Both the position numbers and the translations under genes were made by a program. A stretch of DNA of 64,000 nucleotides from a virus, in the IMG/VR virus record IMGVR_UViG_3300036853_000417, positions 18,151-82,150 of that record; one strand, given 5' to 3'. Each line of letters opens with the position of its first letter. Position 1 is the stretch's first letter. The notes beneath the pieces were generated by a model that was not told the DNA's origin, made no database searches, and saw only the letters and a program-made list of their open reading frames with translations. Shown here piece by piece: positions 27,850-64,000 of the stretch.

Positions 27850-28238
27850 CGTGTCGGGTCAGGAGACCCCCGTCATTTATGCGGGAGAGGAATGACCCTT
27901 CCTTTCTTTGGTGGATAGGGTGGGGATTCCCACCTACGCTCAAGTCCCCTTGCGGGGAGCCGTTTTTGTCGGAACGGTTAAACCGTTGGCGGATTGCCGC
28001 CCACCGTGTCCAGGCACGGGTGATATAACCCTTCGTGGTTGCAATACAGGCTTAGCTATGAATGTATCCATAACATCGCTTTCGGCGTGAGTAGAAGAGG
28101 TCCGAGTTAGGGTGGCGCTCGGACATTCTTGTAGCCCGTACCGCTGCTGACTGTTCACAAGAACAAAGCCCACTAGTCACAAACTTACGTTGCGCTGGCC
28201 GTTTCGCAAGCCCCGTCATTTCTGGCGGGGTTCATGAC
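27850..28238 (-). mobile_element. non-autonomous IS200/IS605-family element carrying an IscB-type omegaRNA (HEARO-like) scaffold, no iscB/tnpA ORF
   Basis: begins GTCATGAACCCCGCCAGAAATGACGGGGCTTG; internal TGACTAG, GTCCGAG..CCCT..CTCGGAC and CGAAGGG; ends AAAGGAGG..TTCCTCTCCCGCATAAATGACGGGGGTCTCCTGAC; both ends carry the same AAATGACGGGG hairpin; followed by ATGAA. Confidence 0.75.
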
Positions 28239-61203: not shown

Positions 61204-62418
61204 TTATTGAATGGTACATCGGGTGAGTACTGTCTGTTTTACTTCCCTATATAGACCTTGATCCTTGACTGTCGCCTTGAGTGTGTAGGTCTCTTTCACA
61301 TTCAACACATCTCTGGATGAGAACCATACGAACTGATTCCCCTTCTCATCAGAGAGATTGTAGATAGAAGTAGTAGTAAAGCCCCTTCTCCCATATACAG
61401 GAGACTCGATATATTTTACAGAGTCACAGGTCAGAGTGAATATTGTACGCTGTCCGACCTCTCCCTGCCACTCTGACGTGACTGCAACCTGTTTTTCTTT
61501 CATTGCCCTGTTGTAGGCAGAGAAGAGGCTAGCCGCGGTCCCGACATTCCTAGAATTGACATAACTTAATTTACAGATGGTATACAGGTTATGCATGTAG
61601 TCATCAGGAAGGACTTGTAACTCTCGAACCCACTCAAGAGCCAGTTTGCTCGTCTCCTGGTCTGCATCACTGGGTTTGAATGCACTATAGGGATTTTTCT
61701 TGTAATAATCCATTGCTTGAATGGCTACATCAGCAGTGGCGGCTTTGTCTCCAAAGCTATCGCGGGCATCACCGCGAGAGACCCATCCATACTTGCGCAT
61801 GCAAGCATGTACCCATGCCAGATAGCACTCCAGGTCAAATGCACTTACCTTGCCACCATACCCTCCTCCGAGCAAGTCGTCATCCGTACAGGAAGATGCT
61901 TCTTCCATTGCCTGTGATAGAATTTCAGCAGAGGCTGCAACACTCATTGGGTCAGCATGTCCTGTGAAGTCCTTCAAGCAGGTTCTCCCTACCTGTTTGA
62001 TTTCACCACTAGATGATTTCAAGAGATAGGTATCATTGCGGAGACGATTTTGATGGCAGTGATCACACTGTGGATCACTATTATAATAGCCGGAAAGTTC
62101 TCCATCTGAGATAAGGCCAGGGACGGCATGGATAATATTTTGCATTGCTCCTTGATCATCATAGGTGTGCTCAAGGGTGGCAACAAAGATCCATCCATTA
62201 ACAATGGGTGTCTCTCCTGAAACACGAACACGATAGAAGAGAGAAACCATCCCATATTGATCCTTCTCGCTATCTGTTCCAAGCTGCTCTAAAGTGATAG
62301 GAGCAGTATGGAGTCTTTTGGCTCTCCTATTCAACTTTTCTAAACGCTCTGTGAGTGTGTCTATATTTTGTGCTGGAATACGAAATTCCTGAGAAATCTG
62401 ATTGATGAGTGCATTCAT
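61204..62418 (-). CDS. conserved phage protein (Zn-binding + C-terminal OB-like domain)
   Basis: CDHC...R.RND.Y...QVGRTCLKDF; GEVGQR...FVWFSS...KATVK...QTVLTRC. Confidence 0.65.
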   Translation of the reverse strand: MNALINQISQEFRIPAQNIDTLTERLEKLNRRAKRLHTAPITLEQLGTDSEKDQYGMVSLFYRVRVSGETPIVNGWIFVATLEHTYDDQGAMQNIIHAVPGLISDGELSGYYNSDPQCDHCHQNRLRNDTYLLKSSSGEIKQVGRTCLKDFTGHADPMSVAASAEILSQAMEEASSCTDDDLLGGGYGGKVSAFDLECYLAWVHACMRKYGWVSRGDARDSFGDKAATADVAIQAMDYYKKNPYSAFKPSDADQETSKLALEWVRELQVLPDDYMHNLYTICKLSYVNSRNVGTAASLFSAYNRAMKEKQVAVTSEWQGEVGQRTIFTLTCDSVKYIESPVYGRRGFTTTSIYNLSDEKGNQFVWFSSRDVLNVKETYTLKATVKDQGLYREVKQTVLTRCTIQ

Positions 62419-62507
62419 GGTTTTTGATCCTTTCATTATTTTCTTCTCACATATTGGTGTGTGTATATCAATGCTTTTAGGGACGCCTTGAGGGGGAGGG
62501 GATCATA

Positions 62508-62777: not shown

Positions 62778-62915
62778 TTTCTTTTCCTCTTTCAGAACTT
62801 GTGTGTTTTTCTTCTTACATGTATATCATAACATATAGGTATACATATGTCAATGCTTTTATGGGCAATTTTGAGGCAATTTTCAAAGGTTCTGAAAAGT
62901 TATGTGTATAATTTT
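62778..62915 (-). promoter_or_regulatory. repeated promoter/RBS cassette, copy D
   Basis: TTGACA(62848-62853)-17-TATGAT; TTTCAGAAC/GTTCTGAAA flanks; TTATGTGTATAA motif. Confidence 0.8.
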
Positions 62916-63093
62916 TGGATTCTGGCGAAGTCTATGAACATATCCAAACTTCCATCGCAATATATTCAGGAGAAAAGTAATGCCTGTGGCTACATAGCCG
63001 CACATCAATGATAGATAATTATCTGTTCTTCCTCTTGCTACTCTGAAGATGTATCTCAAAGATACGCAACCGATAGGGGGAATGAGTATGGAG

Positions 63094-63700
63094 GTTCCAT
63101 CTTCATGCTGGGAGTGGAGCAAGTTGCAACTGGGAAGATGATCCTGTGTTCCGTTTCATCTCCATGTAGGAGCAGGGCAGGTTGCAACGACATGTGATAC
63201 ATTTCACCGCGTATGTAACTGAAAGTTTCACTGCCATGCTAGTTGTGAGACATGCTGCAACTTTGAGCTATCTCTAAGATCGTCCAACGTTCAGCAAGTT
63301 TCACTACCATTCTGGTTGTGGGACACGTTGCAACTGGTCCTTGGTGAACATCGCTACGAGACTATTGGTTTCACTGCCATTCTGGTTGTGGGACATGTTG
63401 CAACTGCTGAAAATGCAAACCGAGCACTGCTTTATACATAATGTTTCACTGCCATTCTGGTTGTGAGGCACGTTGCAACCTATGATGGATTGGTTGGTCG
63501 TTGCACGGTTTCAAAGTTTCACTGCCATTCTGGTTGTGGGGCATGTTGCAACCTATGATGGATTGGTTGGTCGTTGCACGGTTTCAAAGTTTCACTGCCA
63601 TTCTGGTTGTGGGGCATGTTGCAACCTGAGGATAGCACTGCGATTACACTTGGATTGCGTGCCGTTTCACTGCCATGCTGGTTGTGGGACACGTTGCAAC
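63094..63700 (-). CRISPR. CRISPR array: 7 near-consensus 37-nt repeats (63225-63700) plus 2 divergent distal repeats; consensus GTTGCAACRTGYCCCACAACCAGAATGGCAGTGAAAC
   Basis: repeats at 63094, 63153, 63225, 63298, 63368, 63443, 63516, 63589, 63664; spacers 22-38 nt; degeneration on the left, leader on the right. Confidence 0.95.
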
Positions 63701-63858
63701 CGGAAGTCGATTTTGATGGCTTGTCAGGCTGCTCTAGATGGATAGTTTCGCAAATCGGGAAATATCTTCATCATTTCTTCTGGAAAAGGGGAAGATACTT
63801 CTTGTTTGTGCTCAAGTTTTCTCGAAAATCGAGGCTATTTGAGGACAAAATGCGAACA

Positions 63859-63927
63859 TGCAACGTGTTCCATAACCTGGGGATTCTTTGTTCAATCCCA
63901 GGATTGAATGGAGTATCTTGTTGAAAC
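63859..63927 (-). ncRNA. putative tracrRNA anti-repeat region
   Basis: 17/19 inverted match to the repeat 5' half (63859-63877), plus GAATGG (63906-63911) and TGAAAC (63922-63927) segments separated by a hairpin. Confidence 0.55.
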
Positions 63928-64000
63928 CAGACTCAGTTCTTCGGAACTCCGTTAGAAGCGAATATATAGGTACCATAGAGTGCGTGGCCAGCTCGATGCG

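Follow-up and report, generated by a model that had tools for sequence, protein, structure and literature searches.

A CRISPR array joined to an IscB-type omegaRNA scaffold at the end of a soil phage contig: a probable dual-RNA guide locus

A phage contig from soil ends in what is very probably a dual-RNA guide locus of the IscB type, in which a CRISPR array is followed, on the same strand, by an anti-repeat and by the 5' part of an IscB omegaRNA scaffold. The reading that we prefer, and consider likely, is that the array is wired to this omegaRNA and that an iscB gene follows in the phage. IscB is the small ancestor of Cas9. The contig is an IMG/VR virus record of 82,150 bp (IMGVR_UViG_3300036853_000417), and the window, by which we mean the whole stretch of 64,000 nt analysed here, covers its bases 18151-82150, so position 64000 is the contig end and the effector is not visible in the record. 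The record is that of a tailed phage, with genes for a portal, a prohead protease, a DNA methylase and a tape measure protein that has a lysozyme domain. The first 18 kb of the contig also encode an integrase and a sigma-factor-like protein, and the phage is probably temperate. CheckV gives a completeness of 68%, so about one-third of the phage genome may be missing. A search with the portal protein returned no phage relatives. Among public sequencing runs, the stretch is present in one DNA run of the same soil sample, and no RNA run is listed. The features discussed below are as follows, with positions in the window.

62873 to 63093, plus strand: upstream flank of the duplicated cassette, identical in both copies (alignment from 62873 onward)
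63094 to 63130 and 63153 to 63188, plus strand: two degenerate repeats at the tracr-distal end of the array
63225 to 63700, plus strand: CRISPR array of 7 repeats of 37 nt and 6 spacers of 33-38 nt
63225 to 63261, 63298 to 63334, 63368 to 63404 and 63443 to 63479, plus strand: well-kept repeats 1-4
63516 to 63552, 63589 to 63625 and 63664 to 63700, plus strand: well-kept repeats 5-7
63701 to 63858, plus strand: linker from the last repeat to the anti-repeat, non-coding, structured and the most diverged part between the copies
63859 to 63877, plus strand: anti-repeat, the 5' segment of the tracrRNA, pairing with repeat positions 17-35
63868 to 64000, plus strand: IscB-type omegaRNA scaffold, 5' ~60%, cut by the contig end (RF02033 and our own model)
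63876 to 63902, plus strand: hairpin of omegaRNA domain 1, the 'insertion' that splits the anti-repeat (cofold and fold)
63922 to 63930, plus strand: TGAAAC then CAG, the 3' strand of the first stem (P1), aligning to HEARO UGAC-cAG

The array is real and phage-borne, as the first-pass annotation of this DNA had proposed. It has the generic make-up of a CRISPR array (at least three direct repeats of 23-55 nt with unique spacers of similar length); the window array holds five distinct spacers, one of which is duplicated in tandem. The repeats are heterogeneous and weakly palindromic, again as annotated, with six variants among the seven copies and ends, GTTTCA and TGCAAC, that are weakly self-complementary. 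Changes relative to the commonest repeat are all transitions, save for one transversion in the twin copy described below. The degenerate repeats (36-37 nt) retain the termini GTT.CA and GTTGCAAC alone, and on the minus strand the repeat, of 37 nt, starts GTTGCAAC and ends AGTGAAAC. No Rfam CRISPR-DR family matched the array, nor was there any match by blastn against phage and plasmid collections or in exact-pattern scans of IMG/VR, JGI metagenomes and GTDB genomes for the end sequence or the repeat. When arrays with these repeat termini were sought by a gapped pattern, 7+1 single matches came up, which is about the chance expectation. At the contig end of an Acidobacteria MAG (QHZN01000289.1, L005:60-230), two to three units spaced 74 nt apart have the same termini, GTTTCACT...GTTGCAAC; this weak and unconvincing look-alike may be a relic mini-array or chance. 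The spacers themselves have no self-targets in the phage contig and no blastn match in phage and plasmid collections, and the 3' 22 nt of two of them matched nothing in IMG/VR. The earlier proposal to find viral targets with the spacers and to derive a PAM thus gave a negative result in these collections: since no protospacer was found, a target-adjacent motif is not derivable.

A second copy of the cassette lies at the opposite end of the contig, whose first 1,224 bases (L002:1-1224) are the reverse complement of window positions 62873-64000, diverged in places. Both copies have the same upstream flank and degenerate repeats, and they agree in the first good repeat, in the oldest spacer and in the repeat nearest the tracr segment. 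The inner spacers differ, with five distinct ones in one copy and six in the other, one of them shared, and a duplicated spacer is present in each copy. Divergence of the linker amounts to ~4%, in the form of a 7-nt indel and several SNPs. Since Cas1 and Cas2 are absent from the contig, duplication of units and recombination are the likeliest mode by which the arrays change. The outermost 127 nt of both contig ends are identical, the first difference falling at base 128. A shared stretch of exactly 127 nt suggests a break in the assembly graph at k = 127, with ends that are not physical ends of the genome. IMG/VR classes the contig ends as inverted terminal repeats. Inverted copies of the cassette at the two contig ends imply that a segment with long inverted repeats on either side is absent from the assembly. 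Indeed, the public run of this soil sample yields a 458-nt contig that runs on for 121 nt past the contig end, and read depths in that run are roughly compatible, as weak evidence, with two cassette copies per genome.

The earlier proposal of a tracrRNA-like anti-repeat held up well. Positions 63859-63877, on the plus strand, agree at 17 of 19 bases with repeat positions 17-35 read as their reverse complement; this is the sole plus-strand match with three or fewer mismatches in the 64-kb window, compared with 0.02 expected by chance on both strands (100 shuffles of the window). The two further blocks that had been described as complementary to the repeat were also located, in repeat order, downstream of the anti-repeat: GAATGG at 63906-63911, then TGAAAC at 63922-63927. 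The other array of this phage (L002:8712-9720), which has a different repeat, served as an internal control and has no anti-repeat in its flanks. That third array consists of 14 identical 37-nt repeats of another family, ends ATTGAAAC on the contig minus strand, and contains internal duplications of spacer blocks; no cas genes lie near it.

Folding of positions 63626-64000 as RNA paired the last repeat with the anti-repeat (z-score -5.4), so that last repeat, linker and tracr segment made up one long hairpin-closed structure. The first-pass annotation placed the blocks on the minus strand, with the caveat that its two mismatches would be G-U pairs if both RNAs were plus-strand, and plus-strand pairing proved the better fit. 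Cofolding of repeat and tracr segment gave -54.4 kcal/mol for the plus strand versus -43.9 for the minus strand, and the plus-strand cofold pairs repeat positions 1-6 with TGAAAC and positions 17-35 with the anti-repeat. If both RNAs are plus-strand, the substitutions in both anti-repeat copies all become G-U pairs. Moreover, when the 15 repeats were set against their own tracr segment, 33 G-U pairs and 15 mismatches were counted on the plus strand versus 14 and 34 on the minus strand, numbers that rest on about five versus three independent changes, the copies not being independent. That small number weighs against our preferred reading, and for this reason the orientation of the scaffold, described below, is the main evidence on strand.

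Strand also bears on a different explanation, namely that this is a minus-strand, Cas6-type (type I/III) array for a host system, which an IscB element or relic merely adjoins; the anti-repeat would then be no more than the 'guide' that flanks the omegaRNA, left behind by an insertion into an inverted copy of the repeat. GTGAAAC is the end of many repeats that Cas6 processes in type I/III systems, and the minus-strand repeat here has it too (GTTGCAAC...GTGAAAC, 37 nt, with spacers of 33-40 nt), a likeness that tells against our preferred reading. However, the complementarity spans the whole repeat in order (19 nt, GAATGG, TGAAAC), and the 5' end of the repeat completes a first stem that the scaffold forms poorly alone. 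The degenerate repeats lie far from the linker and the copy-specific spacers towards it, as a leader on that side would predict, and the other array of the phage ends in the canonical ATTGAAAC on the contig minus strand; yet that array has no such partner, whereas here the anti-repeat is retained in both copies, with substitutions that are G-U pairs only on the plus strand. Nor was any cas gene found in the contig by a search with five families (Cas1, Cas2, Cas9 RuvC_III, IscB RRXRR and the TnpB zinc ribbon). We regard a type I/III origin as quite unlikely.

No convincing plus-strand promoter for the array was detected, which, together with the position of the degenerate repeats at the would-be promoter-proximal end, counts against the array being wired to the omegaRNA. 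The only strong consensus promoter nearby runs from 62853 to 62825 on the minus strand, directed away from the array; it is near-consensus (TTGACA, 17 nt, TGnTATGAT), and a similar one lies at 62449-62482. Promoters of this type recur in the phage, and one flanks each of the two cassette copies, directed away from it. Over 62841-62922, depth in the public run was three to four times that of neighbouring positions.

The RNA that follows the anti-repeat has a recognisable family. On the plus strand, 63890-64000 aligns to positions 1-123 of the 211 in the Rfam RF02033 (HEARO) model; the score is 26.5 bits, at E-values of 0.001 when 401 nt were searched and 0.024 when 9 kb were. As this match is suggestive but weak, we made an independent test with a covariance model. 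IscB genes were taken from Bacillota genomes, and their alignment was used to fetch 80 IscB loci on phage contigs in IMG/VR (L027-L106). All 20 of the phage loci examined with Rfam had a full HEARO RNA (98-160 bits), ending 22-72 nt before IscB. The aligned 5' 120-145 nt of 19 phage omegaRNAs upstream of iscB were then built into a model, which, over the 82-kb contig on both strands and at E values up to 10, gave exactly two matches: window positions 63868-63998, with 47.4 bits and an E-value of 3.8e-9 over 82 kb, and the twin copy at L002:3-133. The core that the terminal scaffold shares with the phage omegaRNAs can be seen by eye in the alignment and comprises a UUCG-type hairpin, CGUUA, AAUAUAUAGGUACC and a hairpin with a UG..GCC.AG loop. 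Taken together, the shared core and the model match indicate that the RNA after the anti-repeat is an IscB-type omegaRNA scaffold rather than a Cas12-type tracrRNA. One of the phage contigs with iscB, of 132 kb, has a ROOL RNA (304 bits) and a tRNA immediately upstream of its omegaRNA-iscB unit (L039:1488-2086).

A complete orphan omegaRNA (HEARO, 56.7 bits) lies at window positions 28020-28238 on the minus strand, with no adjoining nuclease gene; it and the terminal scaffold have no sequence in common and our own model does not match it, so it belongs to a different subfamily.

The assignment of the terminal scaffold to the IscB omegaRNAs also accounts for the split in the anti-repeat. The one-piece omegaRNA is laid out as guide, P1 5' strand (GUCA...), two hairpins, then ...UGAC and a conserved CAG. 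Both hairpins are present in the phage scaffold, at 63876-63902 and in the stretch that follows; the one at 63876-63902 aligns to the first hairpin of the phage omegaRNAs, and TGAAAC (63922-63927) is a perfect pairing partner of the repeat 5' end, GTTTCA, while the scaffold sequence that aligns to the P1 5' strand cannot pair well in cis. The anti-repeat is therefore 'split' because the domain-1 hairpins of the omegaRNA sit between it and the P1 3' strand. The pairing that the first-pass annotation described is thus real, but what it took to be typical of Cas12f/Cas12k tracrRNAs is the first domain of an omegaRNA. The repeat reads as an antisense mini-copy of that domain, a plausible origin of the pairing.

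On the same grounds we consider the original proposal of a compact type V system (Cas12f/Cas12k-like), which would have a two-part tracrRNA and, past the window, a RuvC gene on the minus strand, to be very improbable. The anti-repeat does look bipartite, and the repeat ends in TGCAAC, as Cas12f1 repeats do. However, two covariance models identify the scaffold as an IscB omegaRNA, and no match to PF07282, the TnpB/Cas12f zinc ribbon, occurs anywhere in the 82-kb contig; neither the RuvC-only zinc-ribbon effector nor the Cas12/TnpB kind of scaffold that mark types V-F and V-K is found there. An IscB omegaRNA belongs to the Cas9, or type II, lineage, so the expected effector is a plus-strand, IscB-like protein with RuvC and HNH domains, in place of a RuvC-only gene on the minus strand. 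An open frame that enters from the contig end on that strand (63812-64000) was rejected as a gene, since it has no homologues and the 7-nt copy-to-copy indel falls inside it.

We found no effector of any expected kind in the 82-kb contig, from which PF14239 (the RRXRR/IscB N-terminal family), PF18541 (Cas9 RuvC-III) and both Cas1 and Cas2 are absent; the only HNH genes are two homing-type endonucleases elsewhere in it. The neighbouring 410-aa protein (61204-62436, minus strand) was rejected as an effector: nothing in Pfam or PDB matches it, its family, common among phages, is of unknown function, and its gene falls outside the duplicated unit. A search with this protein led to one distant phage, which has neither array nor omegaRNA. 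A tmRNA and three tRNAs lie at L001:3492-3807 in a 172-kb phage that shares this protein.

These results are consistent with a model in which transcription of the array would run on the plus strand towards the anti-repeat, which is fused to the IscB omegaRNA scaffold. Each crRNA would consist of a spacer and then a repeat, and the 19-nt anti-repeat would pair with the 3' half of that repeat. The missing 5' strand of P1 would be supplied by the repeat's GUUUCA, paired with UGAAAC just before the conserved CAG, a pairing by which the guide would occupy the exact guide position of a one-piece omegaRNA. The product would be a Cas9-like crRNA:tracrRNA pair, which for the last repeat the 158-nt linker would close into a natural single guide. 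The nuclease would be an IscB of ~400-500 aa; judging from the 20 phage loci, its gene is expected to start ~120-190 nt past the contig end, on the plus strand. The predicted IscB would cut DNA that matches a spacer beside a target-adjacent motif.

Several points stand against this model. There is no effector gene in 82 kb, the record contains just 60% of the scaffold, and with no protospacer found the activity is predicted only. In addition, the orphan omegaRNA at 28020-28238, which lacks an adjoining nuclease gene, means that a scaffold without a gene is possible in this phage. An alternative would be an RNA-only cassette, of arrays and tracr-omegaRNA with no nuclease gene, whose guides would be loaded onto an IscB from the host or another element; the inverted copies would then meet head to head, or end, soon after the scaffold. 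The absence of IscB from 82 kb fits such a cassette, as does the presence in the same phage of an orphan omegaRNA and a second cas-less array. Against this, the omegaRNA ends 22-72 nt before the gene start in 20/20 phage iscB loci examined, and a completeness of 68% by CheckV leaves room for about one-third of the genome to be missing. The contig from the public run stops after a further 121 nt, close to the length needed to complete the scaffold (88 model positions remain), but short contigs end for many reasons. We judge the RNA-only cassette unlikely. A broader version of it, in which a guide-RNA-only phage, with two inverted cassettes, an orphan omegaRNA and a third, cas-less array, would reprogram the RNA-guided nucleases of its host or of co-resident elements, IscB included, seems to us similarly doubtful. 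If the nuclease gene is truly absent, however, the phage would be hijacking foreign RNA-guided nucleases, which would be a much weightier finding; this possibility and the inverted twin cassettes are the points worth following up.

Our preferred reading, that of an array wired to an IscB omegaRNA with iscB following, adds a soil-phage example of a design intermediate between IscB and Cas9, in which the omegaRNA is split into crRNA and tracrRNA. Its anatomy is unusually clear, in that the repeat supplies the missing strand of the first stem of the omegaRNA. The twin cassettes, moreover, provide a natural record of array change without cas1 and cas2.

Several known systems can be set beside this locus. 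It resembles the cas-less CRISPR arrays of viruses, being an assembled record with arrays and without cas genes. Unlike them, however, the phage array comes with a tracr/omegaRNA of its own, an indication of a specific class 2 partner. The order of parts, spacer then repeat, with an anti-repeat at the 5' end of the tracrRNA and then a scaffold, is that of the Cas9 crRNA:tracrRNA pair (type II, including compact Cas9d; PMC9755519); the differences are the long IscB-type omegaRNA scaffold and the lack of Cas9 domains and of cas1/cas2 in the contig.

The one-piece omegaRNAs of phage IscB loci (RF02033; L027-L106) share with the phage scaffold the core motifs and hairpins of its 5' 130 nt (47 bits). 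Of IscB 5' UTRs, 65% carry RF02033, and viruses are the source of many of these fragments (PMC9755519). In the one-piece RNA, however, P1 is closed in cis and the guide is fixed, whereas in the phage locus the 5' strand of P1 comes from the CRISPR repeat and a 19-bp duplex is added that joins two RNAs. By a crude check with exact 14-mers, a clear upstream array was seen at only one of the 80 phage IscB loci (L044, IMGVR_UViG_3300032007_000052). There, L044:1804-2500 holds an orphan HEARO RNA, a mini-array of three repeats and then iscB, with a second iscB just upstream (L030); the 36-nt repeat is the first domain of its omegaRNA, and no separate anti-repeat was seen, making this a one-piece variant of the link between CRISPR and IscB.

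The design of CRISPR array, anti-repeat and omegaRNA has already been published for DelIscB, the CRISPR-associated IscB (Altae-Tran et al. 2021), and it is to DelIscB that the phage locus is closest. In the account of DelIscB architecture on which we draw, the ncRNA upstream of the ORF consists of array, anti-repeat and scaffold, and contains a repeat:anti-repeat hairpin (PMC12660989). Both RNA features of a CRISPR-associated IscB, an anti-repeat downstream on the same strand and a HEARO scaffold 3' of it, are found in the phage. Compared by that description of architecture, the two loci agree in having array, anti-repeat and HEARO-type scaffold on one strand, in the position upstream of iscB, in having no adaptation genes, and in a repeat:anti-repeat duplex that can serve as a natural single-guide hairpin. 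They differ in that the phage record has no IscB gene; that the phage array is full-sized (9-10 repeats, with spacers of 33-40 nt) and its repeats heterogeneous; and that the cassette is carried by a probably temperate soil phage, in two inverted and diverged copies.
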